From positions 90,001-122,000 of the forward strand of contig CP064964.1 in NCBI GenBank assembly GCA_016699205.1: a stretch of 32,000 nucleotides of DNA, written 5' to 3'. A program made the position numbers and the translations under genes. This DNA comes from Candidatus Saccharimonadota bacterium. GTDB taxonomy: Bacteria; Patescibacteriota; Patescibacteriia; 2-12-FULL-60-25. Under the pieces are notes generated by a model that saw only the letters and a program-made list of their open reading frames with translations, did not search any database and was not told the DNA's origin. Shown in pieces: positions 3,897-29,117 of the stretch. Every line of letters starts with the position of its first letter. Position 1 is the first letter of the stretch.

Positions 3897-3932
3897 AGAA
3901 AACACTCGCTATTCAGCGGGTGTTTTCTTTTT
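3897..3932. terminator. bidirectional rho-independent terminator between convergent genes
   Basis: A 13-bp stem AGAAAACACTCGC / GCGGGTGTTTTCT (one G-U pair) with a 6-nt loop and T-runs on both strands. It overlaps the last codons of topA. Confidence 0.75.
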
Positions 3933-6488
3933 GCGCGGCGCACGTTTGGTTTTGGATTTGGCTGGGCCTTTAGCTGCACGCTCGGCGATGAGCTCGATGG
4001 CTTTCTCAAGCGTGACATCTTCCGGCTTCATGTCTTTTGGAATCGTGGCATTCACTTTTCCGTGTTTGACGTAGTTGCCGTATTTACCGCTGTGGAGCGT
4101 GATCGGTTTATTATCTTCCGGATGTTTACCGATTTCCTTGCCAACACCGCCGCCACGAGTGCCTTTAGGCTGAGCGAGCATTTCAAGGGCTCTTTCAAGC
4201 GTAATCGTTAAAACGTCGTCCGGCTCCTTAATCGATCTAAAGTCGCCGTCATGGACGATATAGGGCCCGAAACGGCCTAAGCCGGCGCGGATCTCTTTGC
4301 CAGTATCTTCCTTAACTCCGAGAAGTCGAGGAAGAGCGAGGATGGAGAGGGCTTTGTTGAAATCGAGCGTTTCGAGAGGGATCGTCTTTGGGATGCTGGC
4401 GCGTTTAGGTTTCTTTTTAGAATCCTCGACTTCTTCACCGAGCTGGAGATATGGGCCGTAAGAACCGGTGCGCAAGAAGATTGGCAAGCCAGACTCCGGG
4501 TCCATGCCAAGCGAGGTTGGTCCTTGCTGAGCGCTCTTCAAGACTGTGTCGACAGCTTCTTTTGTGGCTTCACCCGGAAACATATCGGGTGGGAGGGATG
4601 CTTTGATCGGCGCGCCCGTGTTAGGAAGTGTCGACTCGACGTATGGACCAAACTTACCAACCTTAACGGAGTAGCCTTCCAATTCCGGAATGATAATCTT
4701 CTTTGCTTCTTCCGGATTAATGTTCTCGAGCTCATCGTTAATGCGATTGCGTAAGCCTTTATCGCCGAGATAGAAGTTGCGGAGATAGGGAAGCCACTCT
4801 TCTTTTCCTTCTGCGATTTTGTCGAGTGATTTTTCCATCGTTGAGGTGAAGGTTACGTCGACGAGATCGGAAAGATGCTTCTCGAGCAATTGGGTTACGG
4901 CAAAAGCCGTGAAGCTCGGGATAAGGGCGCTGCCTTGTTTGGCGACATAGCCACGATCAAGCAGCGTCGAGATCGTTGCAGCGTAGGTACTTGGGCGGCC
5001 GATGCCTTCTTTTTCCATGAACTGAATGAGCGAAGCTTCCGTAAAGCGTGCCGGCGGCTTGGTTTCGTGGGCGAGCGGCTTGGTTTCAACGCAGCTTGGT
5101 TGATCGCCGGTTTTTAACTCAGGAAGTGCTTTTTCACGTTCTTCCAAAGCTTGCTCGACATCGTCGGCGCCTTCTACGTAGGCGCGCAAAAATCCAGGGA
5201 ACAGGATTTTCATTCCTGAGGCACTAAATTCATTTTTGTCAGCAACGATGCGAGCGGAAATCTGCAGTTGCTCAGCATCTTTCATCTGCGATGCCATCGT
5301 ACGCATCCAAATCAATTCGTAGACATCATGTTCGCTGCCGGAGAGACCGGTTTCGTGAGGTGCGGTAAAGGTCAAGCTCGGACGAATGGCCTCGTGAGCT
5401 TCTTGCGCGCCGGCTGCGGCCGCGTGATGTTTTGCCTCGCCAATAAACTCGGCGCCGAAACGCGAGGTGATGCCGCTCTTAATGCCTTTGACCGCTTCTG
5501 CCGACAAATTGACCGAGTCGGTACGCATGTAGGTGATGAAACCTTTTTCGTAGAGCGATTGCGCGACGCGCATCGTGTCGCGCGAAGACAGACCGATTTT
5601 ACGGTTGGATTCTTGCTGGAGCGTAGAAGTTGTGAATGGAGCCGGTGCTTTGCGCTTGGTTTCTTTTTGTGTGACATCCGTTACGTTCCAATCGGCTTTG
5701 CGCGTGGAATCGGCGATGGCTTTGGAAGTTGCTTCGTCGAGCAATAAAATATCCTTGGCATCAGCTCTGAGTGTGCCGGTGTTTTCATCAAAGTCTTTTC
5801 CGTTGGCGACACGTTTTCCATCGACAAGAACGAGCTTGGCCTCAAACTTTGTTTTATCTTTCTCAAGTTCTGCGAGGACATCCCAGTAGGAGCCTTTGCG
5901 GAAAGCCATTCGCAGCCGTTCACGGTCGACAATTGCTTTGAGCGATGAAGATTGAACGCGGCCGGCGGATAGTCCAAAGGCGATTTTCTTCCAGAGAACA
6001 GGGGACACCGTGTAACCGACGAGACGGTCGAGAATACGGCGCGCTTCTTGCGCATGAACAAGATTTTCGTCGATGTCGCGCGGGTGTGCGAGAGCAGCAT
6101 CGATAGCGGTCTTGGTGATTTCATGGAAGACCATGCGCTTCACCGGAACCTTGGGCTTCAAAAGCTGCAAGAGGTGCCAGGAGATGCTTTCTCCTTCTCT
6201 GTCCTCGTCAGTCGCCAGATAGATGTCATCGGCGTTTTTAAGCAGCCGCTTGATTTCTGCAACGGTTTTGGCTTTCTTTGGGCTGATGACGTAAAGCGGT
6301 GCAAAGTCGTTTTCAACATCGACGCCAAGCTTACCGAAATCGGTTTTTTTGTATTGTTCCGGAACTTCGTCTTGCGAAGACGGAAGGTCACGAACATGAC
6401 CCATGGAGGCGATCACCTCGTAGTCCTTGCCCAAGAACTTGCGGATGGTTTTGGCTTTGGTCGGGGACTCAACGATTACTAAATGCAT
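3909..6488 (-). CDS. topA: DNA topoisomerase I (type IA)
   Basis: 859 aa. It has the Toprim N-terminus MHLVIVESPTKAKTIRKFLG...GHVRDLP, the acidic cluster ATDEDREGE and the catalytic-Tyr region FITYMRTDS. The C-terminal repeats (GKFGPYV, GSYGPYL, GRFGPYI, GKYGNYV) lack Cys4 zinc fingers, and the tail is Lys-rich. Confidence 0.95.
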   Translation of the reverse strand: MHLVIVESPTKAKTIRKFLGKDYEVIASMGHVRDLPSSQDEVPEQYKKTDFGKLGVDVENDFAPLYVISPKKAKTVAEIKRLLKNADDIYLATDEDREGESISWHLLQLLKPKVPVKRMVFHEITKTAIDAALAHPRDIDENLVHAQEARRILDRLVGYTVSPVLWKKIAFGLSAGRVQSSSLKAIVDRERLRMAFRKGSYWDVLAELEKDKTKFEAKLVLVDGKRVANGKDFDENTGTLRADAKDILLLDEATSKAIADSTRKADWNVTDVTQKETKRKAPAPFTTSTLQQESNRKIGLSSRDTMRVAQSLYEKGFITYMRTDSVNLSAEAVKGIKSGITSRFGAEFIGEAKHHAAAAGAQEAHEAIRPSLTFTAPHETGLSGSEHDVYELIWMRTMASQMKDAEQLQISARIVADKNEFSASGMKILFPGFLRAYVEGADDVEQALEEREKALPELKTGDQPSCVETKPLAHETKPPARFTEASLIQFMEKEGIGRPSTYAATISTLLDRGYVAKQGSALIPSFTAFAVTQLLEKHLSDLVDVTFTSTMEKSLDKIAEGKEEWLPYLRNFYLGDKGLRNRINDELENINPEEAKKIIIPELEGYSVKVGKFGPYVESTLPNTGAPIKASLPPDMFPGEATKEAVDTVLKSAQQGPTSLGMDPESGLPIFLRTGSYGPYLQLGEEVEDSKKKPKRASIPKTIPLETLDFNKALSILALPRLLGVKEDTGKEIRAGLGRFGPYIVHDGDFRSIKEPDDVLTITLERALEMLAQPKGTRGGGVGKEIGKHPEDNKPITLHSGKYGNYVKHGKVNATIPKDMKPEDVTLEKAIELIAERAAKGPAKSKTKRAPRKKKTPAE

Positions 6489-6492
6489 AGGG

Positions 6493-6517
6493 CAGGTTTC
6501 AGTGGTCAGGTTTCAGT
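6493..6517 (+). repeat. inverted-repeat arm (left) of the four-helix-bundle cassette
   Basis: CAGGTTTCAGTGGTCAGGTTTCAGT is the reverse complement of 6888-6912 at 24 of 25 positions. It is itself a tandem of a ~14-nt unit. It begins 5 nt upstream of the topA start codon and contains the cassette ORF stop codon. Confidence 0.85.
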
Positions 6518-6928
6518 TTTTAGTAGGGAGGAGATTAGTCCATTCATGATCTTGGAAATCTCGTTGATATCTTGTAGTAGAGCACTTACTTCCAGCGAAT
6601 ACAAATCCTTTATGATTAAGATTTGTGTTTCTATTTCTGCGAGTGAGCCGTGCGCTGTTCTTACAAAGTGCAGGAAATCCTTTCTTGTACCACGCTTTGA
6701 ACCTTCCGCTATGTTAGAAGGAACTGATATAGCTGATCGTCTCAGTTGATTTTTTAAGCCGAATTCTTCTTTACTCGGTATTTTTTCAAGCAGTAAGTAG
6801 ATGCTTTTTGTGAGCAGCATGCTTTTCTGCCAAACAATTAAGTCCTTGAAACTTTTGATTGTTTTGTTGCCAGTTGGTCGATTCGCTACTGAAACCTGAC
6901 CACTGACACCTGAAAACTGTGTAGACAT
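6506..6928 (-). CDS. four-helix-bundle protein (23S rRNA intervening-sequence protein family)
   Basis: The core FKDLIVWQKSMLLTKSIY...LKNQLRRSAISVPSNIAEGSKRGTRKDFLHFVRTAHGSLAEIETQILI matches that family. The only in-frame start upstream of the core and clear of dprA is ATG 6928; the longest ORF, to 7003, would overlap dprA. Confidence 0.85.
   Translation of the reverse strand: MSTQFSGVSGQVSVANRPTGNKTIKSFKDLIVWQKSMLLTKSIYLLLEKIPSKEEFGLKNQLRRSAISVPSNIAEGSKRGTRKDFLHFVRTAHGSLAEIETQILIIKDLYSLEVSALLQDINEISKIMNGLISSLLKTET
6888..6912 (-). repeat. inverted-repeat arm (right) of the four-helix-bundle cassette
   Basis: ACTGAAACCTGACCACTGACACCTG. Its reverse complement differs from 6493-6517 at one position. 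It encodes residues SGVSGQVSV of the cassette ORF. Confidence 0.85.
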
Positions 6929-6944
6929 ATATATAAGACAAAGG

Positions 6945-7832
6945 TCATTTATGCAAACGTGAGGACGTTCGAGACCAGAATTGTCCGCCAAGTTGAGCCA
7001 CATATCCCTTCATCTCGAGTAGCGAGAGATGGGCGCTGGTTGTCGCCGAATCGAGGTTGGCTTGGGTTGCGAGATCATCGATATGGATATGACCGTTTAC
7101 CAGGGCGAGAATATGACTTTCTTGGGCGGTCAGAGGCATGGAAGCTCGTACTTGCGAGACGAGTTCCGGCCGATCGAGTTTTAAGGAATCAAGAATATCT
7201 TGGGCATTTGTGCAGGCTTTGGCGCCGAGCGATAAGAGCCGATTGCAGCCCATAGAAACATCCGACCAAATTGATCCGGGGACAGCCAGGACTTCACGAT
7301 TATATTCAAGCGCGAGCTTTGCCGTGATAAGAGAACCGCTGCTTTCATTAGCTTCGATCACTAGCGTTGCCGGAGTCCAGCCGGCGATGAGGCGATTTCT
7401 GCGCGGGAAGGCGTGCTTGAAGGAGGGCGATCCGGGTGGATTTTCCGAGATGATCGCTCCGCCGTTTTCTAAAATTCTATGCGCGAGCTTGAGATGTTCC
7501 CGTGGGTATATCGTGGGCTCGTCGATTCCGGTGCCGAGGATTGCGATCGTGTAGCCGCCTGCTTCAAGAGCTGTCGTGTGTGCTTCTCCGTCGATACCAA
7601 GCGCAAGTCCGGAAACGATTCCAATGCCGGCGCTTACAAGTCCGCGCACGATTTCTTGCGTTGCACGGCGACCGTAGGAAGTGCAACGACGTGTGCCGAC
7701 AATCGAGACGCACGGAATATCTTGTAATATTCCACGCAAGTACAATCCGTTTGGCGGATTGCTTATTTGACGGAGCAACGGCGGATAACGCGCGTCGCTA
7801 ATCGAGAGCATTTCAATGTTATTTGGAAGCAC
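6945..7832 (-). CDS. dprA: DNA-processing protein DprA (Smf)
   Basis: 295 aa with the DprA core GLALGIDGEAHTTALEAGGYTIAILGTGID...FPRRNRLIAG. The start is GTG 7832 (alternative ATG 7811). Confidence 0.9.
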   Translation of the reverse strand: MLPNNIEMLSISDARYPPLLRQISNPPNGLYLRGILQDIPCVSIVGTRRCTSYGRRATQEIVRGLVSAGIGIVSGLALGIDGEAHTTALEAGGYTIAILGTGIDEPTIYPREHLKLAHRILENGGAIISENPPGSPSFKHAFPRRNRLIAGWTPATLVIEANESSGSLITAKLALEYNREVLAVPGSIWSDVSMGCNRLLSLGAKACTNAQDILDSLKLDRPELVSQVRASMPLTAQESHILALVNGHIHIDDLATQANLDSATTSAHLSLLEMKGYVAQLGGQFWSRTSSRLHK

Positions 7833-8668: not shown

Positions 8669-9094
8669 ATGCAAAAGAATCATGATGCGGATCGATATTG
8701 GCTCGTGACTTTTGGTTACTGTTTCTCAGCTGCATTCATTTTTAATCTTGTTTTAGCTGTTATCTTTTCTCAATCGGGTTCATTTGATTTTGGAGGTGAC
8801 TTATTATTAATTTTTGTTGGCATCCCTTTATTTATTGCAATTGCTACTGTGATGATTGATGAGGCGAGATCAAAGGTCCGACCTGCGAACGTGTCTAAAA
8901 AAAGACATTGGGTCAAAATACTTATTTTCATTCTCCTCTCACAGGTCATTTCGTATGTGCCCTACACACTTCTTCGCAATACTTTAGAATGGTACTCATA
9001 CGATAGCCGGTCTCCTGAGGGGAACGCGAAGCGCTTGAACGCACAAGAGAATCGTAACCCTTATATACAAGGTGGATCTGTGTACATCAAATAA
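8669..9094 (+). CDS. hypothetical small membrane protein (about 3 TM segments)
   Basis: I placed the start at ATG 8669 (TGcTATTCT lies 9 nt upstream); the longer ORF from 8519 would overlap pth. Hydrophobic stretches include YWLVTFGYCFSAAFIFNLVLAVIF, LLLIFVGIPLFIAIATVMI and WVKILIFILLSQVISYV. Confidence 0.55.
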   Translation: MQKNHDADRYWLVTFGYCFSAAFIFNLVLAVIFSQSGSFDFGGDLLLIFVGIPLFIAIATVMIDEARSKVRPANVSKKRHWVKILIFILLSQVISYVPYTLLRNTLEWYSYDSRSPEGNAKRLNAQENRNPYIQGGSVYIK

Positions 9095-9123
9095 CAAAAT
9101 TCCCGCCAAAGCGGGAATTTTGT
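9094..9123. terminator. bidirectional rho-independent terminator
   Basis: A 13-bp perfect stem ACAAAATTCCCGC / GCGGGAATTTTGT with loop CAAA. It lies between the convergent membrane-protein gene and the repaired end of der. Confidence 0.75.
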
Positions 9124-9125
9124 GC

Positions 9126-10609
9126 TTAGTAGCGGCGACCACCGTGCTTCTGACGGCGCATGGTCTGGTTGACGAGCTTTTTTCTTTGTGGCGGACTTTT
9201 CCGACGACGGCTTCCATACCTGGACCGTTTACGTTGCGTTTCTTTTCCGTCTTGGCCATCGGCAAGTGGCGGACTTTGACGCGGATCGGGGTACCGGTGA
9301 AGGAGAATTTATCGCGTAAGCGCTTTTGGAAGAACTTGAGCCAGTTATTGTGCAAGTTGTCCTTGTCACCGTGTACCGTGACCAGGAAGGTCGGCGGTGC
9401 GTGGCCAGTTTGGGCGACGTCGTAAATACGAGGGGATTTTGGACCGTAGCTGGCAAGCGGCTTCATCTTTTGAATACACCACTTGAGTACGCGGTTTACG
9501 GCGTTATAGTCGATGTGACGCATGCGTTCCTCTTGAACCTTTACAGCCATCTCGATGAGTTTTCCGGCGCGCAAATCTTCCTTAGCACTCACAAAGACCA
9601 TCGGAGCCCAGGAAAGGAATGGGAAAAGCTGACGAATCAGCATTTCATATTCATTGGTAGAACCCGTGTCTTTGTTCTGAACTAAATCCCATTTGTTAGC
9701 GACCAGAATCAAACCTTTGCTCGATTCCTCCAACATGCCAGCCAAGTGGCGATCCTAAGCAGAAGGATCGACGGTTGCATCAAAGACGAGCAAGGCAACA
9801 TCGGCGGCTTCAACAGCTTGGCGATTACGTTCGATCGCTGCTTCTTCAATTCCTTTTTCTACGCGCGAACGCTTGCGCATACCAGCGGTATCAACAATCA
9901 CGACTTCCTGTCCGTTGTATTTCAAATGCGTGTCCTGAGGTTCACGCGTGGTGTGGGGGATCGGGGATACGATGGAGCGCTCCTCGCCAACGATGGCGTT
10001 TACGAGAGAGGACTTTCCGACGTTCGGGCGGCCGACAAGCGTGATGCGGAGCGGGCGGGCTTCCGGAATAACCTGCGGCGGCTTACCGATGCGGTTGAGT
10101 TCGATAAACAATTCGTCGAGCAAATCTCCAGAGCCGAGAGAAGTAGCTGCGCTGACGATGTGTGGGACGCCAAATCCGAGGGCTTGCCACTCTTTAGCCA
10201 TGCCGTCGTTGAATTCACGAAGCGTATCGACCTTGTTGGCCACGAGCCAGACATTCTTGTGAAGCTTGCGTACGTGGCGAGCGAGATCGAGATCCTGCGG
10301 CATGATTCCGGTACGAGCATCGACCACAAAGAGAACGACGTCTGCTTCTTTGATGGCTTTCTCGGCTTGTTTGCGGATACCTTCGCCGATCACATCTTTC
10401 TCCGTATCCATTCCACCGGTGTCGACCATTTCAAAAGAAGCTCCGTTCCAAATAACGGGAGCGTAGTTGCGGTCGCGGGTTGTGTGCGGACTGGCGCTGA
10501 CGATGGCACGGCCGGACTCAGTCAAGCGATTCCACAACGTGGATTTACCGACATTCGTACGTCCTACCAAGGCTACACGCGGCAAGTCACGGCCGAGTTT
10601 GTGTCGCAT
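9126..10609 (-). pseudogene. der: ribosome-associated GTPase Der (EngA), disrupted as assembled (in-frame TAG at 9755-9757; frameshift at T6 run 9178-9183)
   Basis: There are two tandem GTPase domains (GRTNVGKST...DTGG...NKVD and GRPNVGKSS...DTAG...NKWD) plus a KH-like domain, split into ORFs 9755..10609 and 8996..9745 in the same frame. The assembled C-terminus reads through the terminator. Adding one base to the run gives ...GKVRHKEKKLVNQTMRRQKHGGRRY and TAA at 9126-9128, just ahead of the hairpin. Confidence 0.9.
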
Positions 10610-12220: not shown

Positions 12221-15133
12221 ATGTCTTTGCGTTCATTGGCCGCTTGGAAAAAGCCTCTTGTTGTTAGTTTGCTGTTTTTTCTGATCGGTACAAATCTCTT
12301 AACGATGTTTGCGCCCACCGCGCATGCGCAAGACGGGGGTCGAGCCGCAGATGCCGCTGCTGCATTAATCGGTTCTGAAGCAAGACCAAGTGACAGTGCA
12401 GCGATTCGGATGGCGAGCGAGGCTGCTGCTTCTTCATCGGCTGTAAGTACGAGCGATGCTTGTACCGGCAGCGGTGTATTTGGTCCATTTTTAGGGTTTA
12501 TCTGTAGCGGCATGACACTGGTTCTTGGGCTTATTGTTGAACTACTTGGCAAGCTTGTTACATTGATTTTGTCCATTCTTCTCGCCTTCGCAAAATACAA
12601 TGCATTCGCGAGCGCGGCTCCGGTACAAGTTGGTTGGCCGATCGTGAGAGACATCTGCAACATGTTTTTCATCATCGTCCTTTTGGTTTCCGCTTTTGCG
12701 ACGATCATCGATCAAGCACAGAGTGATTTGCATTACACCAAGGTATTACCAAGGCTTCTGGCGATGGCTGTGTTGATCAACTTTTCAAAAACGCTCATCC
12801 AGCTGCTGATTGATTTTTCGCAGGTCGTGATGCTCACGTTTGTAAATGCGTTTGCCGCTTCGGCGAGCGGTAACTTTGTTAATGCTCTCGGATTGACGAC
12901 GATCATGCAGCTCGACACATCAGTTCCAGCAGGCACGGCAAACATGGCAAATATCATCATCTCGTACATGCTGGCGATTTTCATGCTTGGCATCATGATC
13001 TCGGTTGTCAGTCTTCTGACGAGATTCCTTATTTTCCGTATTGTCGGCCTTTGGATCGCACTTATTTTTTCACCTCTTGCTTTCTTTGTTACGGCGGTTC
13101 CAGGACGTTTGGCAAAGGGTCTCGGCAGTATTGCGAGCGATTATTGGGGTCGATTGGGCAGCTTGTTGAGCGGAGGACCGATTATTGCTTTCTTTTTGTG
13201 GCTTACGCTCGCCATTGTTCAGCAGGCGAACTCTGGAGCAGCAGGACAAGGACTTTCTCAGGTTTTGGACTTTGAAGTTGAGGGACCCGTGCAAGTTTTT
13301 TTGACTTCTATCGGTAATGCGCAGTCGATCGCGTCGTTCGTTGTCGGTATCACCTTGTTGATGATGGGCTTGGATCAGGCCGTGAAAACATCCGGACAAA
13401 TCAGCAGTACGTTGGGCGCTTTTGCTAGTAAGGCGAAGAGCGCAGGTACGTCGCTGGGTCGATTGGGTGCGTTGGCGCCGTTTTTGGCGGCTGGGTATGG
13501 AGCTCGTGCAGGAGCGCGAGCTGTTGATCAACGCTTTGATGTCACGAGACGTGCTTCAGCGCTTGGTCTTAAGACCGTTGGACGTGTTCCAGGTGTCGGG
13601 TCCGCTGTACGTCCGACGTTGGCGCGCGGTCTTACGATGCGAAGAGAAGAAGCTGCTGCTCAGGCTGCTCAGGAAGCCAAATTGGTTGGAAATGTTGCCA
13701 AGTTTGGTACTGATCAAGAACAGAAGATGGTCGGAAAGACTTACAGTATGAGCGGAAGCGCGTTCCGTACTCTTGGAGCTAGATCCGGCTCGATGAAAGT
13801 CGCCGAGATTTTGGCCACCGACAAGATTCGCGATCGCGAGATCAAGAAAAATGAAGAGAGCTATGTTGACCGCTTGAAGGCCTCCGGTATGTCGGAAGCT
13901 GAGGCGAAGAATGGCAGCAAGGTTTTGGCTGAGAAGGATGCTTATCGCGAACAGATGGGCTTTATTCAAAATCAGATCGAGTTGGCACGCGGACTTGGCG
14001 ACTTGGACAAGGTCGAAGATCTTGAGAAGGCGATTCGTATCAATCCATACATGGCTTCCGATAAAGACCGCCAGTCGCAGATTGATAAGCTCGCTACCGA
14101 TCCAGAGAAGTACAAGGATATTAATAAACAGGATGCGATGAGTGGAGATCTCTTAACTGGATTCATGCAGAAGCATGGATGGGAAACCAATGCAGCAGGG
14201 GAGCTCGCCATCAAAGACACGGCTGCTTATGACCGTTTGAAGGAATCTGTTCAGAAGTCTGGCAATAAGTCGCTTCTTGAAGGCTTGGAGGCACATGAGA
14301 CGTTTGTTGTTAATTCACCAGGGCTTAAAACATCAGAAGCCACACAGTTACAGCATCGCAAGAATTCAGCAGATGGCATGATTCAATCATTCAGTGTAGC
14401 CAGAGAAAATGGAGAGTGGCAGAAGGATTCGTCTGGTAATTTGAAAGCTGGAACACGTGTTCAAACAAAAAACTATACAAAGTCCCTTGCAGATCTTGAA
14501 TCAGCAACAGCAGCCCGTAAAAGCTCAGGTGATACTGTGCCTCGTGATGTTATACCGCAAAACAATATTGCAAATGCAAAGCTTGCCGATTCATTTATCT
14601 CAAACAATGGCACGCTGACGGACTATCTAGCTAAAGCAAAGAGTAGCGATGTCGATACTCTGCCTATTCAGACTATCCAGTATCAAGTTTTCAATGGAGC
14701 GGAATCTGGTATCGCTGCGCTGAATACCGGTGACTCAATCAAGGCAAATGAGACATTGAAACCCGTTAGTAGAATTCTCGCGCAGATTGATCAACAAGGT
14801 ATTTCAGACACGATGCAATCGGATATTATCGAGTCGTTCTCGACTGGCCTTAGGGACGTTTCAGGAAAGATCAATACTTCATTTGTAAGAAATATCGATA
14901 AACTGACACCACAGATTCGAGATTCCTTGGTGAAAACATTAGAAACCGCTAAGAAACGTGCGGACGACATACTTCAGAATGTCGCTAAAGATAAGATGAC
15001 GGAAGCACAGAAGGAAGTTGTTGCATTTTCAGATGCTGTTTCTAAGGAAATTGATATCAATCGCAAGAACATCAACTCACGCATTCTCAATGCCTATCGC
15101 CCAGGTCGCGATCGAGCTAGCGGAAATACATAA
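12221..15133 (+). CDS. VirB6/TrbL-like polytopic membrane protein with signal peptide and a ~550-aa hydrophilic C-terminal extension
   Basis: 970 aa. The signal peptide reads MSLRSLAAWKKPLVVSLLFFLIGTNLLTMFAPTAHA-QD. About 7-8 hydrophobic helices fall between residues ~80 and 390, in a TrbL/VirB6-like arrangement, followed by a long charged tail. It is the first gene of a cluster that contains VirB4 and PrgI-like genes. Confidence 0.7.
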   Translation: MSLRSLAAWKKPLVVSLLFFLIGTNLLTMFAPTAHAQDGGRAADAAAALIGSEARPSDSAAIRMASEAAASSSAVSTSDACTGSGVFGPFLGFICSGMTLVLGLIVELLGKLVTLILSILLAFAKYNAFASAAPVQVGWPIVRDICNMFFIIVLLVSAFATIIDQAQSDLHYTKVLPRLLAMAVLINFSKTLIQLLIDFSQVVMLTFVNAFAASASGNFVNALGLTTIMQLDTSVPAGTANMANIIISYMLAIFMLGIMISVVSLLTRFLIFRIVGLWIALIFSPLAFFVTAVPGRLAKGLGSIASDYWGRLGSLLSGGPIIAFFLWLTLAIVQQANSGAAGQGLSQVLDFEVEGPVQVFLTSIGNAQSIASFVVGITLLMMGLDQAVKTSGQISSTLGAFASKAKSAGTSLGRLGALAPFLAAGYGARAGARAVDQRFDVTRRASALGLKTVGRVPGVGSAVRPTLARGLTMRREEAAAQAAQEAKLVGNVAKFGTDQEQKMVGKTYSMSGSAFRTLGARSGSMKVAEILATDKIRDREIKKNEESYVDRLKASGMSEAEAKNGSKVLAEKDAYREQMGFIQNQIELARGLGDLDKVEDLEKAIRINPYMASDKDRQSQIDKLATDPEKYKDINKQDAMSGDLLTGFMQKHGWETNAAGELAIKDTAAYDRLKESVQKSGNKSLLEGLEAHETFVVNSPGLKTSEATQLQHRKNSADGMIQSFSVARENGEWQKDSSGNLKAGTRVQTKNYTKSLADLESATAARKSSGDTVPRDVIPQNNIANAKLADSFISNNGTLTDYLAKAKSSDVDTLPIQTIQYQVFNGAESGIAALNTGDSIKANETLKPVSRILAQIDQQGISDTMQSDIIESFSTGLRDVSGKINTSFVRNIDKLTPQIRDSLVKTLETAKKRADDILQNVAKDKMTEAQKEVVAFSDAVSKEIDINRKNINSRILNAYRPGRDRASGNT

Positions 15134-15139
15134 TCATCT

Positions 15140-16711
15140 ATGACTCATGATGAATGGCTGGAAGGCTTTAATGCCGCGCCGGATGCCGTTCAGGAGTACC
15201 TGCTCGGTCCCTCTTCTGGAACAGCTGAAGACGCAGCTCAGACGCGATTGGCTTACGATAATGATGCCTGGGACCGCTTGATGGATGCGGTTTGGGATCT
15301 GCTGTTCAAGAAAAGTTCACGCGGCGAGTTTGAAGCAAAATTAAAGATCGTTGCAGGGGATAGAAAACCGGAAGAAGTCGAGCGCGTGGTTTTGCGCTGG
15401 GTTGTATTACCTTTAGCGGATTTGGTTACTTGGGATGTCGAGGCGCGTTTACTCGAACTCGGGGTTCCGATTGGAGAAATTCAGGGTGCCGTGCGCGTTT
15501 CTTTGCGTCCGGTATCGTATGGCGCGGCTGTGCGACGTATTGCATCGACAGCAAAGATTAGCTTGTTGAATGAGGAGATCGTTAGAAAGATTCGTGACGT
15601 CATGGTCTCGGTTATTAAAGGCGTGAGATCAAAGGAACAAGCGCTTGAGATTTTGCAAAGGCAGCAGTCGGAGGGAGGTTTGGGATTCGCTCCTCAACAA
15701 GCACAAGCGTTTATTGCAGAAATGGAAACGTTTTTGGCGACAACGCAGGTCATGTCAGAGCAGGAATATGCCGAGTGGTATCGAAACTTTCAGCAGCAGT
15801 CGAATGCAGAGGAGGCGGAGGCTGCGAGCGCAAAACAGAAATCATCAGGCGACGAATTGAGTGGTGCAGGTATGCCAAAACCAGCCGTAAGCACGGATCC
15901 TGTTTTGGAAGCGGCTATCGATAGTGGGATGGCGCAGATCGGTGATTTGAAGTTGGATGAATATACAGCCAAACGCTTGAGGAATGTTGTGTCTACGCGT
16001 CTACGCGACGTGAGAAATGCCATGCAAACAAGAGCCATGCTGGAACGCGAGACGCATGTTGGCGGCGTGGGTCTGGCTCCGGACGTTGCGGCGCGGGTTG
16101 CTGCTATTATCGAGTCTACGTATCAGACCCAGCATTCTGCAATCGATGAAGAGCAGAGAAAGAGGATCGAGAGCATGCAGGATGAACAGCGTAAGAAGAT
16201 TGATGAACGAAAACAGCGTGAGAGCGAGGAGCATGCGGCTTGGTACAAGCAGAAAGTTGCTGGTGCGAAGGGAGATATAGCCGTTGAGCAGTTGCGGGCA
16301 GCGATGCAGGGGCAGGTTTTAGTGGATAGTGGTCAGGTTTCAGTGCAAGCGAAGCCTTCCATGATTGATATCGTGCCTCCGATGCGTCTTTCTGGACTTG
16401 GTGATGAATTAAAGTCGATGGATATTGAAACATTCCGTAGACAAGCCAAGACGCCAGAGCAGGCGGCTGAGAAGATTTATCAGAAGCTGGAAACCCTAAA
16501 GCGCGAGAACTTTGAACGCTGGACGGATGGCGTTGCCGCTTGGAGATCATCGCCATTACAGCAACAGTATCTGCGTTTAGTAACTGAAAGTTTCTCAACG
16601 GCTAAGCCGGTTGCACAACTCGTAGAGGAGAAGCGTAAAATTGATCCAAATCTACCAACAGCAGAGGAATTGGGAGCGATTATTGCGCTGAATGCCAGGA
16701 TTCAATTTTAG
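15140..16711 (+). CDS. hypothetical soluble acidic protein of the T4SS-like cluster
   Basis: 523 aa, starting 6 nt after the upstream gene. It has no TM segment, an internal duplicated ~50-aa motif and coiled-coil-like E/K/Q-rich stretches. No family was recognised. Confidence 0.75.
   Translation: MTHDEWLEGFNAAPDAVQEYLLGPSSGTAEDAAQTRLAYDNDAWDRLMDAVWDLLFKKSSRGEFEAKLKIVAGDRKPEEVERVVLRWVVLPLADLVTWDVEARLLELGVPIGEIQGAVRVSLRPVSYGAAVRRIASTAKISLLNEEIVRKIRDVMVSVIKGVRSKEQALEILQRQQSEGGLGFAPQQAQAFIAEMETFLATTQVMSEQEYAEWYRNFQQQSNAEEAEAASAKQKSSGDELSGAGMPKPAVSTDPVLEAAIDSGMAQIGDLKLDEYTAKRLRNVVSTRLRDVRNAMQTRAMLERETHVGGVGLAPDVAARVAAIIESTYQTQHSAIDEEQRKRIESMQDEQRKKIDERKQRESEEHAAWYKQKVAGAKGDIAVEQLRAAMQGQVLVDSGQVSVQAKPSMIDIVPPMRLSGLGDELKSMDIETFRRQAKTPEQAAEKIYQKLETLKRENFERWTDGVAAWRSSPLQQQYLRLVTESFSTAKPVAQLVEEKRKIDPNLPTAEELGAIIALNARIQF
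16304..16344 (+). repeat. third copy of the cassette repeat motif, inside a coding region
   Basis: ATGCAGGGGCAGGTTTTAGTGGATAGTGGTCAGGTTTCAGT. The 17-mer AGTGGTCAGGTTTCAGT (16328-16344) is identical to 6501-6517, and the upstream blocks ATGCA/GGGCAGGTTT/AGTGG also match 6483-6505. It encodes MQGQVLVDSGQVSV. Confidence 0.7.
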
Positions 16712-16807
16712 TTGTCATCCCCGTGAAAACGGGGATCCAGCTGAGTGAGATTGAATAAATGCTCGGATTTGTTAAGGCTGGATTCCTGCCTTCGCAGGAA
16801 TGACAAG
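16712..16807. repeat. pair of 30-nt palindromic (REP-like) units in inverted orientation
   Basis: Unit A is TTGTCAT-CCCCGT-GAAA-ACGGGG-ATCCAGC (16712-16741). The reverse complement of unit B (16778-16807) is TTGTCAT-TCCTGC-GAAG-GCAGGA-ATCCAGC. The flanks are identical and the hairpin stems differ by compensatory changes. Confidence 0.8.
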
Positions 16808-16812
16808 CATTG

Positions 16813-16821
16813 TGCTATAAT
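16813..16821 (+). promoter_or_regulatory. extended -10 promoter internal to the T4SS-like cluster
   Basis: TGcTATAAT, with ATG 16830 8 nt downstream. There is no Shine-Dalgarno sequence. Confidence 0.55.
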
Positions 16822-16829
16822 TACATCAA

Positions 16830-17273
16830 ATGCCAGAGAAATTCGTTGTACCTCAATTTATCGATAACGAAGATAAAATTCTCGGCCCGATTACGGTCAG
16901 ACAATTTTTGCTGTCTCTAGGTGGTACATTTGCGATATTTATCGAGTATCGTATTTTTACTTTGCCATTTTTCATCATCTTGGCGATTTTGACTGCAGCT
17001 TTTGTCGGCGTGTTTGGATTCTTGAAGATTAATGGCCAACCATTCCATTTGTTTTTCGTGAATGTCCTGCAAACCATGTCTCGGCCTAGGCTTCGGGTAT
17101 GGCATAAAGCGTTGAATGATGCCGAGTTGAAAGTTTTGGCGATTATGGCGCCTAAGGTGGAAGCGATCACGGCCTCCGTTACCAAGAGTCGTCCGGAATC
17201 GACACGTTTAAGGGATTTGGCTCTCACCGTAAATACGGGCGGGGTGTACAATCCTGATGAAGATCAGTCCTGA
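16830..17273 (+). CDS. PrgI-family (VirB3-like) small membrane protein
   Basis: 147 aa. The N-terminus FVVPQFIDNEDKILGPITVRQFLLSLGG, followed by two hydrophobic helices, is the PrgI-family pattern seen next to VirB4 in Gram-positive-type T4SS. Confidence 0.7.
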   Translation: MPEKFVVPQFIDNEDKILGPITVRQFLLSLGGTFAIFIEYRIFTLPFFIILAILTAAFVGVFGFLKINGQPFHLFFVNVLQTMSRPRLRVWHKALNDAELKVLAIMAPKVEAITASVTKSRPESTRLRDLALTVNTGGVYNPDEDQS

Positions 17274-17961
17274 TATGCAAAGCGCAAAACTAGCCGGACC
17301 TAAACCCGGAGTACCATCACAACGTTTCCTCGATGTCGCAGAGATCCGCGACAATATTGTCATTATGCGCGATGGAACATTACGTTCCATTTTGCTTGTT
17401 TCCAGCATCAACTTTTCGTTGAAGTCTGTTGATGAACAAAATGCCATCGTGCAAGCCTATATGCAGTTTTTGAATGGATTGGATTATCCGATTCAGGTCG
17501 TCATCCAGTCGCGTCGAATGAATATCGATAATTACATGCGCCAGTTGGATGAGAGCGAGAAAGTATTAACCAGCGATCTTTTAAAGCGCCAAATTCATGA
17601 CTATAAAGATTTCGTTGTTCAGCTCGTAAAGCTTGGTGATATCATGCAGAAGCGATTTTACGTGGTTGTTCCGTTGAACCCGGCTACGGACAAGGGGACG
17701 GTGCAGAAGGGATTTGCCCAGCGTTTAGCAGAAATTTTTTCGCCAACCATTGTTGGAAAACTTACAGAGGAACGTTTTCAAAAATTGCAGTTCGATCTCA
17801 GCTTGCGTGTGAATCAAATTATCGGCAGATTGGCGAGTATGTCGCTTAATGCCGTGCAGCTTGATACGCAGAGTTTAATCGAGATGCTGTATACCGTTTA
17901 TAATCCGGAATTGTTTGAAACGCAGCGCATGAGCGATATCAGTAAACTCCAACTCGAATAA
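17257..17961 (+). CDS. hypothetical T4SS-associated protein resembling the extreme N-terminal module of Gram-positive VirB4 ATPases
   Basis: 234 aa. The start is ATG 17257 (17-nt overlap with the upstream gene) or ATG 17275. It carries the pattern QRFLDVAEIRDNIVIMRDGTLRSILLVSSINFSLKSVDEQNAIVQAYMQFLNGLDYPIQVVIQS. The stop lies 1 nt before the virB4 ATG. Confidence 0.7.
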   Translation: MKISPDMQSAKLAGPKPGVPSQRFLDVAEIRDNIVIMRDGTLRSILLVSSINFSLKSVDEQNAIVQAYMQFLNGLDYPIQVVIQSRRMNIDNYMRQLDESEKVLTSDLLKRQIHDYKDFVVQLVKLGDIMQKRFYVVVPLNPATDKGTVQKGFAQRLAEIFSPTIVGKLTEERFQKLQFDLSLRVNQIIGRLASMSLNAVQLDTQSLIEMLYTVYNPELFETQRMSDISKLQLE

Positions 17962-17962
17962 T

Positions 17963-19861
17963 ATGGCCTTTACACCGGAACAAAAACCAGGCTTTGACCC
18001 TTCGCAGATCACGAAGGGCGGTGTTGGCTTGCAAAAAGGCCCAAATAAGGAAGAACGCGCCAAGGCCACAGAAGAACAAAAAATCGCTCTTGAGGAAGAG
18101 CGTATTTATCGTAAGGGTGTTGCATCGATCAAAGATTTGATTGCGCCAGCATCAATGGTCGTTGAACCGTCATTTGTGCGTCTGGGCGATGTTTATTGCC
18201 GTACGCTGTTCGTCGTCACGTATCCGCGTTATGTGACGGTTGGATGGGCCTCGCCGATTATTAACTTGTCGGCACAGTTGGATATCGCGATGTTCTTTTA
18301 TCCGATTAAAGCGGATATCGTTTTGAAGCAGCTCAAGCGTAAAGTCGGTGTCCTTGAAGCGCAGATTTCTTCTGATGCCGAGTCCGGAAAGCCTCGCGAT
18401 CCGATCAATGAGACGGCTTTGCGCGATATCGAGCAGCTGCGTGATGATTTGACGCAGGGTATTGAGCACTTTTTCCAATTTGCGTTTTATTGCACGTTCT
18501 ATTCAAAAGATAAGGATGAGCTGGAGCGTGTAACATCAAGTGTAGAAAGCACATTTGCTGCGATGTTGATTTATACGCGTCGATCGTATTTCCAGGCTGA
18601 ACAAGGCTTCAACTCGACATTGCCGGTTGGAAACGATGAGTTACAGATCACCTTTAACATGAGCACCTCGCCGATTGCGTCGTCTTTTCCGTTTACATCG
18701 GCGGAGCTTACGAGCGATAACGGTATTTTGTATGGCGTGAATCGCCATAATAACTCGCTCATCATTTTTGACCGTTTCTCGCTTCAGAACGCGAATGCGA
18801 TTGTCTTTGCTACTTCTGGTGCCGGTAAATCGTATGCGGTTAAGCTCGAGATCATCCGATCGTTGATGCTTGGCGTGGATGTTATCGTTATCGATCCAGA
18901 ATCGGAATATAAGCATTTGTCCGATGCCGTCGGAGGAACGTATATCAACATTTCTTTGGCCTCGCGCTCCAAGATCAATCCATTTGATTTGCCGAGACCG
19001 ACAGGAGAAGCGTTTGCTGTCGAGGATATTATCCGAAGTGCTGTTATTACGATCAAAGGCTTGCTGCGCTTGATGTTGGGCAAGGTTACGACGACAGAAG
19101 ACTCGATCTTGGACCGAGCATTGCTTGAAACGTACGCCAAGAAGGACATCATGCCGGGCGCTGATCTCTCATCGGTCGAGCCGCCAATTTTGCAGGACTT
19201 CCAGAGTATTCTTGAAGGCATGGAGGGGACGGCCGAGTTGATTGTCAAACTTAAAAAGTTTACGGAGGGCACATTCTCCGGTCTTTTGAACTCGCCGACC
19301 ACCGTGCAGATGAATAATCAGCTCGTGGTTTTCTCGGTGCGTGATCTTGAAGATGAATTGCGATCCATGTCGATCTATACGATTATCAACTACATTTGGA
19401 ATGTGGTGCGATCGGAACGTAAGAAGCGCATTTTGATTATTGATGAGGCTTGGTGGCTGATGCAGTCGGAAGATTCTGCCAAGTTTATCTTTGCTCTCGT
19501 GAAACGCTGCCGTAAGTACTTCTTGGGAATCACGACAATTACACAGGATGTGAATGACTTTTTGACTTCACCTTACGGACAGGCGATTGTAACCAACAGC
19601 TCGATGCAGCTTTTGTTAAAGCAATCGCCGGCTGCCATCGACCTTGTTGCCAGAACATTCTTGCTGACGCAGTCGGAAAAATATCTTTTGCTTGAGTCTG
19701 GCGTTGGTGAGGGTATTTTCTTTGCCGGAGCCAAGCATGCCGCTATTCAGATCGTTGCTTCTTACACGGAGGACCAGATCGTTACAACGAATCCGCAGCA
19801 ACTGCTCAAGATCGAGGCCGCCAAGAAGGAGTTTGAAGAATCACAAAACCCTGGAGTCTAG
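17963..19861 (+). CDS. virB4: VirB4-family type IV secretion ATPase
   Basis: 632 aa. It has a VirB4 N-domain (YCRTLFVVTYPRYVTVGWASPIIN), Walker A FATSGAGKSYAVK, Walker B RILIIDEAWWLM and the downstream motif GITTITQDVNDF. Confidence 0.9.
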   Translation: MAFTPEQKPGFDPSQITKGGVGLQKGPNKEERAKATEEQKIALEEERIYRKGVASIKDLIAPASMVVEPSFVRLGDVYCRTLFVVTYPRYVTVGWASPIINLSAQLDIAMFFYPIKADIVLKQLKRKVGVLEAQISSDAESGKPRDPINETALRDIEQLRDDLTQGIEHFFQFAFYCTFYSKDKDELERVTSSVESTFAAMLIYTRRSYFQAEQGFNSTLPVGNDELQITFNMSTSPIASSFPFTSAELTSDNGILYGVNRHNNSLIIFDRFSLQNANAIVFATSGAGKSYAVKLEIIRSLMLGVDVIVIDPESEYKHLSDAVGGTYINISLASRSKINPFDLPRPTGEAFAVEDIIRSAVITIKGLLRLMLGKVTTTEDSILDRALLETYAKKDIMPGADLSSVEPPILQDFQSILEGMEGTAELIVKLKKFTEGTFSGLLNSPTTVQMNNQLVVFSVRDLEDELRSMSIYTIINYIWNVVRSERKKRILIIDEAWWLMQSEDSAKFIFALVKRCRKYFLGITTITQDVNDFLTSPYGQAIVTNSSMQLLLKQSPAAIDLVARTFLLTQSEKYLLLESGVGEGIFFAGAKHAAIQIVASYTEDQIVTTNPQQLLKIEAAKKEFEESQNPGV

Positions 19862-28558: not shown

Positions 28559-29068
28559 TTAAATCTTTAATAGCCGCCCGATTATATCAGAAAGATGCTC
28601 TCCTTGCAAGTCCAGATCCTCTTGAAGGTACTGGCGCAAATGGCTGCGTAGTTCCACGGGGTCTTGGTCGATCAGCTCCAAGCGCATGCGCTGGGCCAAG
28701 GTTGCTTTTGGCTCAATATAGAGGACTTTGGCCATTGGAGGCTGATACACGATGCCAAAGTTGCCGATATCCTGAAACAGGTGAAGTTTACCGTCTACAA
28801 CGATGCCATTGTCGCCGATTTGAACGAGGATATGGCGAGGCTCTTGGCTGCCGACCAACAATATAATGATGGCGGAGAGAAAGATGATAAAAGCGAACAA
28901 GAAATTAGCCGTCCAAACAGCATAAGCGATTAGCAAAACCGACAGAACGGCTAGCCCGAAATACCAGGTTTTTCCGCGCTCATGCTTATCAAAAGCCGGC
29001 ATTTCCCAGACAAAGCGGTCTTGGGATGAAATCATGGCGTCCTCGACTTCCGAGGGAAAAGATCGCAT
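28559..29068 (-). CDS. hypothetical 2-TM membrane protein
   Basis: I placed the start at ATG 29068 (9 nt after TGcTACAAT); alternatives are ATG 29035 and the longest ORF from 29119. It has a hydrophobic hairpin WYFGLAVLSVLLIAYAVWTANFLFAFIIFLSAIIILLV followed by a ~100-aa soluble domain. No family was recognised. Confidence 0.65.
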   Translation of the reverse strand: MRSFPSEVEDAMISSQDRFVWEMPAFDKHERGKTWYFGLAVLSVLLIAYAVWTANFLFAFIIFLSAIIILLVGSQEPRHILVQIGDNGIVVDGKLHLFQDIGNFGIVYQPPMAKVLYIEPKATLAQRMRLELIDQDPVELRSHLRQYLQEDLDLQGEHLSDIIGRLLKI

Positions 29069-29077
29069 ATATCGGCC

Positions 29078-29108
29078 ATTGTAGCATAGAACATCAGGCA
29101 TAGAACAT
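29078..29108 (-). promoter_or_regulatory. direct-repeat promoter module (second copy of the T4SS operon module)
   Basis: The minus strand reads ATGTTCTATGC-ctg-ATGTTCTATGC-TACAAT, with ATG 29068 9 nt downstream. It is 25 of 31 identical to 12179-12209 and has the same 11+3+11+6 layout. Confidence 0.5.
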
Positions 29109-29117
29109 TTATCGCAC

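Follow-up and report, generated by a model that had tools for sequence, protein, structure and literature searches.

The window analysed here is a stretch of 32,000 nucleotides (nt) from contig CP064964.1 (GenBank assembly GCA_016699205.1, positions 90,001 to 122,000), and the element of interest is a small gene cassette lodged between dprA and topA. dprA (6945-7832, PF02481 at 2.8e-72 in Pfam) lies upstream and topA (3909-6488, PF01131, PF01751 and PF13368, without a Shine-Dalgarno (SD) sequence) downstream, both on the minus strand, and between them, in the same orientation, is an open reading frame (ORF; 6506-6928) of 140 amino acids that Pfam and NCBIfam place in the four-helix-bundle family known as S23p or 23S_rRNA_IVP. 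Comparison with the closest empty site, the locus L090, bounds the inserted cassette at 6489-6924 on the minus strand. An earlier note, written from the sequence of the window alone, had reported an AT-rich ORF of this family between 25-bp inverted arms, on one strand with dprA and topA and with no terminator in between. All of this is borne out: Pfam confirms the genes, no promoter-like or terminator-like consensus occurs between dprA and topA, and the core arms (6493-6517 and 6888-6912, 25 nt each and 370 nt apart) are complementary at 24 of 25 positions (96%). The interior (6518-6887) has a GC content of 0.386, against 0.530 for dprA, 0.517 for topA and 0.487 for the window, and ranks in the lowest 0.8% of 370-nt windows. 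An Rfam search of the window returned three tRNAs only and no known RNA family at the cassette.

With their flanking heptads the arms, both read on the minus strand, reach about 6490-6523 and 6888-6919. In transcript sense the 5' arm (6888-6919) consists of the heptads CAGTTTT, CAGGTGT, CAGTGGT, CAGGTTT and CAGTAGC, and the 3' arm (6490-6523) of complementary, CTG-phased heptads. The earlier note had described a tandem unit of about 14 nt; the true period is 7 nt (CAGnnnn, five phased units per arm), and the apparent 14-nt unit is two alternating heptads. With up to two mismatches allowed, the 14-mer GGTCAGGTTTCAGT is present five times in the window, where 0.08 occurrences would be expected. 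Being head-to-tail 7-nt units in at least three copies and intergenic, the arms have the form of the short tandemly repeated repetitive (STRR) sequences of cyanobacteria. Both arms overlap the ORF, essentially as first noted: the 5' arm spans codons 6-14, and the 3' arm begins at an ACT codon and contains the last three codons and the TGA (6506-6508). The stop codon therein lies 17 nt upstream of the topA ATG (6488), from which the core of the 3' arm is separated by only 4 nt, CCCT.

The ORF matches PF05635 over residues 28-130 (E 2.8e-34; 118 bits, cut-off 33.8) and TIGR02436, 'four helix bundle protein' (E 8.7e-34; 116 bits, cut-off 24), and its nearest homologues come from Uhrbacteria. An AlphaFold2 model of the monomer (pLDDT 88.5) has helices at residues 27-47, 52-78, 82-110 and 115-136, preceded by 26 N-terminal residues that are encoded by the arm and disordered in the model. 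Foldseek superposes Xcc0516 (2GSC) on the model with a root-mean-square deviation of 1.0-1.2 Å and a TM score of 0.87, phmmer finds the same protein at E 2.8e-18, and BT_0352 (2RLD) follows at TM 0.85. Xcc0516 is called a pentamer in PMC4990558, which cites Lin 2006. A more distant Foldseek match (TM 0.8) is Avd of the diversity-generating retroelements (DGRs; bAvd, 4DWL and 8UB7/8UB8), a four-helix bundle that is itself a pentamer binding nucleic acid and reverse transcriptase (RT). However, Avd shares only 11-13% identity with the cassette protein, and the bAvd models score below their cut-offs for it (21 against 40 bits in Pfam, 21.6 against 80 bits in NCBIfam). I rejected a DGR as an explanation of the locus: a scan of 23 ORFs from the 32-kb window, which did not specifically address template or variable repeats, gave no RT (RVT) domain.

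The duplex of about 25 bp that the earlier note expected around the ORF is predicted by folding, and the long-range stem is present in both the minimum free energy and the centroid structure (z = -3.45). The two arms pair at -43 kcal/mol, compared with -14 +/- 3 for shuffled arms, and in a 760-nt context the pair probabilities are near 1, with at least 0.79 for 24 of the 25 arm pairs. Complementary termini of this kind, enclosing the insert in an extended stem (24/25 pairs), are a hallmark of the intervening sequences (IVSs) of bacterial rRNA.

Insertion and inheritance at the dprA-topA junction

The earlier note had proposed a comparison of dprA-topA spacers in relatives, and this comparison yields both filled and empty sites. 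dprA, the cassette with its arms, and topA follow one another in five lineages (the window, L001, L002, L102 and L103), and the site is empty in L090, where DprA is 86% identical, in L086/L087 (76%) and in L088/L089 (62%). In the empty loci dprA is followed directly by topA across a spacer of 13-45 nt that contains no ORF, and none of them (L086-L090) has a heptad array. Set against close relatives, the element is an insertion/deletion, and such sporadic presence, with five lineages filled and three empty, is also characteristic of IVSs. The arms are not a fixture of the spacer: relatives that lack the ORF lack the arms as well, and the motif of the arms recurs outside this locus. The further expectations of the earlier note, a stable duplex and a distinct base composition, hold as given above.

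In the window the junctions read TGA CCTTTGTCTTATATATATGT/CTACACAG...CCTGCCCT/ATGCAT (slashes marking the ends of the insert), where L090 has TGA CCTTTGTCTTATATATATGT/ATGCTTCACTT/ATGCAT and the empty site of L088 has ...ATGTCT/ATGCAT; from these alignments the insert is read as 6924-6489. The ATG used by the ORF (6926-6928, minus strand) is outside the insert and derives from the host: TATATATATGT is present in the empty site of L090, ATGTCT/ATGCAT in that of L088, and the window's cassette has ATC at the position where the cassettes of relatives carry an ATG of their own. Beyond a possible CT, no target-site duplication was found at the junctions when these were set against the empty sites, and the ORFs scanned in the window include no transposase or recombinase in or near the cassette.

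Related cassettes occupy other junctions: between ftsZ and nrdR (L003-L005 and L100), between atpD and atpC (L099) and upstream of efp (L101). At each of these the downstream gene (nrdR, atpC or efp) is co-oriented with the cassette, and where the upstream gene is co-oriented too, the 5' arm begins at its stop codon. The junction ...CCCT/ATG is common to the topA, atpC and efp sites and to the nrdR site of L100, whereas the nrdR locus L003 reads CCTGCCTC/ATG (CCTC/ATG). In five of six cassettes the stop codon of the four-helix-bundle ORF is 11-24 nt ahead of the downstream ATG. In all eight related cassettes of the candidate phyla radiation (CPR), which cover four sites, the arms are predicted to pair at -21 to -48 kcal/mol, much lower than the shuffled means.

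Substitution rates among the window, L001 and L002 indicate that the gene is maintained. The core of the four-helix-bundle ORF has an omega of 0.07-0.10 at a synonymous divergence (dS) of 1.3-1.9, indistinguishable from dprA (omega 0.07-0.10, dS 1.5-1.9). As judged from these values the core is under strong purifying selection and the protein is functional. Since the dS of the core is about that of dprA, the cassette has resided here for about as long as the lineages have diverged, and the rates thereby show vertical inheritance at the dprA-topA site over the time that dprA has diverged. The first 27 codons, where the ORF reads through the 5' arm, differ from this pattern, with an omega of 0.6-1.1 at a dS of only 0.14-0.48; this stretch is conserved as nucleic acid and shows no constraint as protein.

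Because slippage of heptads makes column alignment ambiguous, the orthologous arms of the five cassettes were compared by duplex energies and unit by unit. The arms exchange heptads one at a time while their pairing potential persists. Both L102 and L001 have GACACCTG, which pairs perfectly with CAGGTGTC, and the single arm mismatch of the window is found at this unit, where it carries GAAACCTG.

Architecture of the family across phyla

A scan of the family, limited to one genome per species, gave 80 loci from many phyla, including Acidobacteriota, Bacteroidota, Clostridia, Planctomycetota, Desulfobacterota and CPR. Inverted repeats that score above shuffled controls flank the gene in about 55 of the 80, and the arms are almost always tandem heptads. 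The heptad itself varies from locus to locus (CCAGTAG, AGTGGTT, ACGTTTT, GTTGTCG, AGTACCT and others), with the 3' arm always its reverse complement. A period of 7 is the only one enriched near the gene: 51 such arrays lie within 250 nt of it against 34 in 5.7 times more flank, an 8.5-fold higher density, and arrays with periods of 4-6 and 8-12 are uncommon, whether near the gene or in the flanks. Within the arms of 61 loci, identity at a lag of 7 is 0.73 compared with 0.20-0.29 at every other lag, and 52 of the 61 5'-arm heptads contain AG. At L041 (1841-2268) there is a second, tandem four-helix-bundle cassette with heptad arms of its own.

The placement of the cassette is equally regular. 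In 42 of 52 loci the 3' arm is followed, at no more than 40 nt, by the start of a co-oriented ORF of at least 100 amino acids (10 in the mirror control), and in 42 of 52, again, the end of a co-oriented ORF is no more than 40 nt from the 5' arm (12 in the mirror control). None of 40 sampled family loci is in an rRNA gene. From these two results it follows that the mRNA spacer is the usual home of the family, and the arrangement in the window, between dprA and topA and not in an rRNA gene, is typical; rRNA genes, after which the family was named, are the rarer setting. Across phyla, the data taken together show, the family's standard design is a gene with inverted heptamer arrays, set flush between two neighbours of its own orientation. 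The earlier note was right about the finding and half right about its meaning: the cassette is of the IVS type, but the note had treated as an exception the operon spacer that is normal for the family.

Plasmids provide further examples. On the Nostoc punctiforme plasmid pNPUN02 the homologue NPUN_RS35280 has arms of GTCAGGA x5 and lies between co-oriented genes, and a copy on a Calothrix plasmid has TTAGCTG arrays. In the plasmid collection such homologues cluster in Nostoc, Calothrix, Trichormus, Anabaena and Scytonema, genera that overlap the cyanobacteria with reported heptanucleotide repeats (Calothrix and Nostoc). Culturable hosts of this design therefore exist, pNPUN02 being one instance.

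That heptanucleotide microsatellites should merely happen to flank a small gene, as a neutral by-product, is scarcely credible on these data and was already disfavoured by the evidence from arms and arrays. Heptamers are indeed the commonest long simple-sequence repeats in many bacteria, a fact ascribed to polymerase slippage (PMC4679880, PMC4692102), and heptamer copy number varies among Coxiella strains (PMC4990558). But slippage alone does not account for arms that are reverse-complementary in about 55 of 80 loci despite unrelated heptads, for the 8.5-fold array density next to the gene, for an arrangement that is oriented and flush with both neighbours, or for the conservation of synonymous sites in the arm.

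Proposed duplex formation in the transcript and its alternatives

A relative of the cassette with experimental data is the IVS in the 23S rRNA of Coxiella burnetii, which has an ORF of the PF05635 family and a 28-bp terminal stem; RNase III cuts this stem at its middle, both in vitro and as mapped by rapid amplification of cDNA ends, and the 5' arm has two or three tandem GACAGAT heptamers, their number varying among strains (PMC4990558). Insertions in the 16S and 23S rRNA of CPR bacteria also carry 23S_rRNA_IVP ORFs (bioRxiv 10.1101/2024.02.27.582315). The kinship with rRNA IVSs drawn by the earlier note is thus sound, as the S23p-bearing IVSs of Leptospira and Coxiella and the cassette have in common a homologous PF05635 ORF, an enclosing stem of 25-28 bp, heptamers in the arms, a sense orientation in the host transcript and a sporadic distribution among relatives. 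They differ in the host, which is rRNA there and the dprA-topA mRNA operon here, and in the state of the gene: the Coxiella ORF seems to be decaying and is probably untranslated (PMC4990558), whereas that of the cassette is under strong purifying selection. Also unlike the rRNA IVSs, the cassette has arms that overlap both ends of its ORF and a stem that stops 4 nt short of an essential gene's start codon.

On balance I lean, modestly, towards reading the element as an IVS-type cassette that would be co-transcribed with dprA and topA and whose arms would form an RNase III-type duplex. In one Candidatus Uhrbacteria lineage an S23p / PF05635 gene, with an array of about five tandem heptads on either side in inverted orientation, would have entered the dprA-topA spacer (13-45 nt) just after a pre-existing ATG. 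Having no promoter of its own, the cassette would be transcribed together with dprA and topA, and the arm duplex of roughly 25 bp in the transcript would be a substrate for RNase III, as in the 23S IVS of Coxiella and as reported for Leptospira. By cutting there, RNase III would set free the cassette RNA and part the dprA message from that of topA, and the stem, which otherwise ends 4 nt from the SD-less start codon of topA, would be lost. In the window's copy the ORF would borrow the ATG of the host, read through the 5' arm and stop within the 3' arm, so that passing ribosomes would also open the stem, and translation of topA could become coupled to that of the ORF. A motif resembling an SD sequence occurs within 18 nt of the start in only 2 of 25 genes of the window, and the organism seems to initiate translation without SD sequences. 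In such a genome a stem 4 nt from the topA AUG likely matters for initiation; as it is, an essential topA in an SD-less organism tolerates an insertion of 436 nt at 4 nt from its start codon.

Several observations weigh against this reading. Cleavage by RNase III at this locus is an extrapolation from relatives borne by rRNA. A bare requirement for a duplex does not explain the strict 7-nt period or the conserved AG, nor the occurrence of heptad arrays without any enclosed gene, as solo arrays and cargo-less pairs. In L103 the pairing of the arms has decayed to about -21 kcal/mol with the gene intact; in this locus the 3' arm has shifted outside the ORF. Finally, if the arms were selected as RNA, mismatches between them might favour G·U on the sense strand over A·C, but across 63 loci the two are found 63 and 59 times (p = 0.79), with no excess. 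The G·U test, being neutral, neither supports nor excludes the RNA model and leaves RNA-level selection on the arms undemonstrated; their complementarity could equally be kept at the DNA level or through concerted evolution.

The first of these options, that the arms act as DNA, is unlikely in my view. Here the arms would be the termini of a mobile or excisable element, either terminal inverted repeats (TIRs) or a hairpin or cruciform in single-stranded DNA, with the RNA duplex a by-product, and the cassette would enter or leave hairpin loops by structure-dependent recombination or replication slippage. It fits the loss of arms along with the gene in close relatives, the occupation of at least four sites by related cassettes (topA, nrdR, atpC and efp) and the lack of G·U bias. 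It also finds a place for cargo-less inverted pairs with loops of 4-14 nt (L072, L082 and 29083-29143 in the window), which could be landing pads or scars, and for the rRNA IVSs, which occupy the apical loops of helices 9, 25 and 45 (PMC4990558). Like MITEs (miniature inverted-repeat transposable elements) and other TIR transposons, the cassette has terminal inverted repeats, insertion polymorphism and a base composition richer in AT than that of its host. Unlike them, it is without target-site duplication or conserved termini, carries a gene under selection, and is strictly co-oriented with its neighbours and flush with them. The arm sequences diverge so widely between cassettes that an enzyme would have no conserved terminus to recognize, and neither a transposase nor a recombinase was seen in or near the cassette among the ORFs scanned. 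Co-orientation with both neighbours (42/52 against 10-12 in the mirror controls) and a fixed 4-nt offset from the ATG would be unusual for a DNA transposon, and a dS equal to that of dprA speaks for long vertical residence.

Alternatively, the arrays could serve as translational punctuation, stopping ribosomes in all frames and placing an unstructured, C-rich junction 4 nt before the next start, so that the downstream gene of an SD-less genome would be translated by termination-reinitiation. The near absence of SD motifs in the window (2/25 genes), the shared ...CCCT/ATG junctions with the L003 variant, and the four-helix-bundle stop that, in five of six cassettes, precedes the downstream ATG by 11-24 nt are all consistent with this. 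Stop codons close all three frames in 22 of 61 5' arms and 10 of 61 3' arms, compared with 3% of shuffled ones, and TAACTGA arrays in Beggiatoaceae end 1 nt ahead of start codons (PMC4679880). A similar case is L099, a locus from an Uhrbacteria genome, in which the atpA-atpG spacer consists, from stop codon to start codon, of nothing but a solo array (524-562), TAG GCTACTC ACTACTT CCTACTT TCTACTC ACTTCCCCC ATG, two genes upstream of the atpD-atpC cassette. Yet 20 of the 61 3' arms have no stop codon at all, and the simpler claim that the arms exist to close all reading frames is only partly true and was rejected. Taxa that use SD sequences have an ordinary one between arm and ATG, and the complementarity of the two arms is left unexplained. 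I regard punctuation as distinctly improbable. These alternatives, including the neutral one and that taken up next, are not mutually exclusive.

Heptad arrays beyond the cassette

Heptad arrays also occur with no gene between them. A solo array of five heptads of the cassette's own family, GGGCAGGTTTTAGTG GATAGTG GTCAGGTTTCAGTG, lies at 16310-16345 (plus strand) within an ORF of 523 amino acids (15140-16711); it carries the exact 14-mer of the arm and is the only additional array of this kind in the window. The array encodes GQVLVDSGQVSVQ in a linker that is hypervariable in sequence and conserved in length, in an otherwise conserved protein: an orthologue of 78% identity also has SGQVSV in the linker, and one of 94% identity has an unrelated sequence of similar length there. 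The 523-aa protein is identical to IPH19_00585 from a metagenome-assembled Candidatus Uhrbacteria genome; for the 140-aa product of the cassette and a 165-aa product of the window, look-ups gave no record. At the start of recG there is a cargo-less inverted pair with a different heptad (29083-29143, no strand assigned; GCATAGA.. / ATGCTCT x3.7), in which GCATAGAACAT x2 faces ATGCTCT x3.7 in a modest hairpin (z = -2.6) that overlaps the starts of recG and of the divergent gene 28559-29119. In other phyla, cargo-less pairs with loops of either 4-14 nt or 116-132 nt are found, among the loci, at L072, L082, L053 and L054. As separate observations, L100 has heptad arrays in a pyruvate-kinase-like coding sequence (GGATCAA x3 and CGCAGCA x4, at 2470-2510 and 2834-2857, the latter sequence at the contig end), and recG itself (29118-31213, plus strand) apparently comes as two ORFs that overlap in different frames, one at 29118-30164, which has the RecG wedge domain, and one at 29942-31213; this suggests a frameshift or an indel error of long-read sequencing.

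Across the 80 loci, 23 of 45 arrays other than the arms agree in heptad with the cassette at their own locus; for the cassettes of other loci the figure is 3.6%. As the extra arrays near a cassette usually share its heptad, protein and heptamer arrays may form one system. The arrays could then be binding sites of a pentamer of the four-helix-bundle protein, which would read or maintain its heptad in RNA or DNA; it might regulate its own cassette and other loci with the same heptad, or propagate arrays, in a relationship like that of RAYT transposases and REP sequences. I consider this doubtful as it stands, although it accommodates much that the duplex leaves aside: the strict 7-nt period with AG in 52 of 61 heptads, the sharing of heptads within a few kb and the exact 14-mer in the solo array at 16310. 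The pentameric state ascribed above to Xcc0516 would suit it, as would Avd, the only characterized member of the fold, which is a pentamer in a ribonucleoprotein with RT and its RNA (8UB7/8UB8). Furthermore, plasmid homologues are concentrated in Nostoc, Calothrix and Anabaena, overlapping the cyanobacteria with STRR repeats, and a binding partner has been postulated for the Nostoc heptamers (bioRxiv 10.1101/2022.06.06.494920). On the other hand, heptads differ greatly between genomes, so that specificity must co-evolve with a very conserved protein, and 22 of the 45 far arrays have unrelated heptads. Sharing within a genome could also stem from local duplication and not from recognition, and the binding of protein to array is a proposal only.

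Repetitive extragenic palindromic (REP) sequences and their associated RAYT genes, together known as REPtrons, offer a familiar likeness, a small gene flanked by inverted short repeats that are also scattered between genes. RAYTs, however, are HUH transposases and REPs are single palindromes, whereas the cassette has a four-helix bundle with no known catalytic motif, and tandem heptads.

Heptanucleotide repeats have been described, as unexplained, in Calothrix/Nostoc, Xanthomonas and Beggiatoaceae (PMC4692102, PMC4679880, bioRxiv 10.1101/2022.06.06.494920). In Xanthomonas the unit GGGAATC forms 70-75 convergent inverted pairs (PMC4692102). The STRR, GGGAATC and TAACTGA repeats resemble the cassette's arms in being intergenic tandem 7-nt units that often abut start codons; they are specific to their genomes and their function is not established. 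What sets the cassette apart is that its arrays bracket a PF05635 gene and that extra arrays nearby share the heptad. I found no publication tying PF05635 to flanking heptamer arrays other than that on the Coxiella IVS, in a literature search that left most subscription journals uncovered, so that a prior description is possible. '23S rRNA IVP' is among the domains linked to CRISPR arrays in a large CRISPR-discovery screen (PMC10910872), and heptamer arrays flanking four-helix-bundle genes may be what such screens pick up as repeat arrays.

The inverted bracketing by arrays, the operon location and the shared heptads combine into one testable hypothesis for the S23p family and the heptanucleotide repeats. 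The family has been without a known function since its discovery in rRNA IVSs in the 1990s, and heptanucleotide repeats beside bacterial start codons have lacked an explanation for an equally long time. PF05635 pentamers and bacterial heptanucleotide arrays might be the two halves of one widespread system, an idea that I put forward as a speculative one, more apt to fail than to hold. If it were true, the array-flanked gene would be the 'autonomous' unit, with hairpins and solo arrays of the same heptad as its derivatives or targets; the protein would read or propagate arrays that punctuate operons at start codons; and rRNA IVSs would be merely the special case that was noticed first. Such a system would cover STRR, GGGAATC and TAACTGA repeats together with the arrays in CPR, Acidobacteriota, Bacteroidota, Clostridia and Planctomycetota.

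Some other features of the window may be recorded. The 523-aa protein with the solo array adjoins a cluster resembling type IV secretion or conjugation systems (12221-19861), with a 970-aa membrane protein, the 523-aa protein, a member of the PrgI family and a VirB4/TraG-like ATPase. Between the 523-aa ORF and the PrgI-like gene is a 30-nt imperfect inverted repeat (16712-16806, 77%) comprising two GC-rich hairpins, GTCATCCCCGTGAAAACGGGGATC and ATTCCTGCCTTCGCAGGAATGAC, which could be a terminator or a REP-like element. Elsewhere, der (EngA) is broken by an in-frame TAG (9755-9757, minus strand) into two ORFs, 9755-10609 and 8996-9745. At this point the translation is ...VDPSA*DRHLAG, with the stop where typical Der sequences would lead one to expect Gln (CAG), and the split is either a nonsense mutation or an assembly error.

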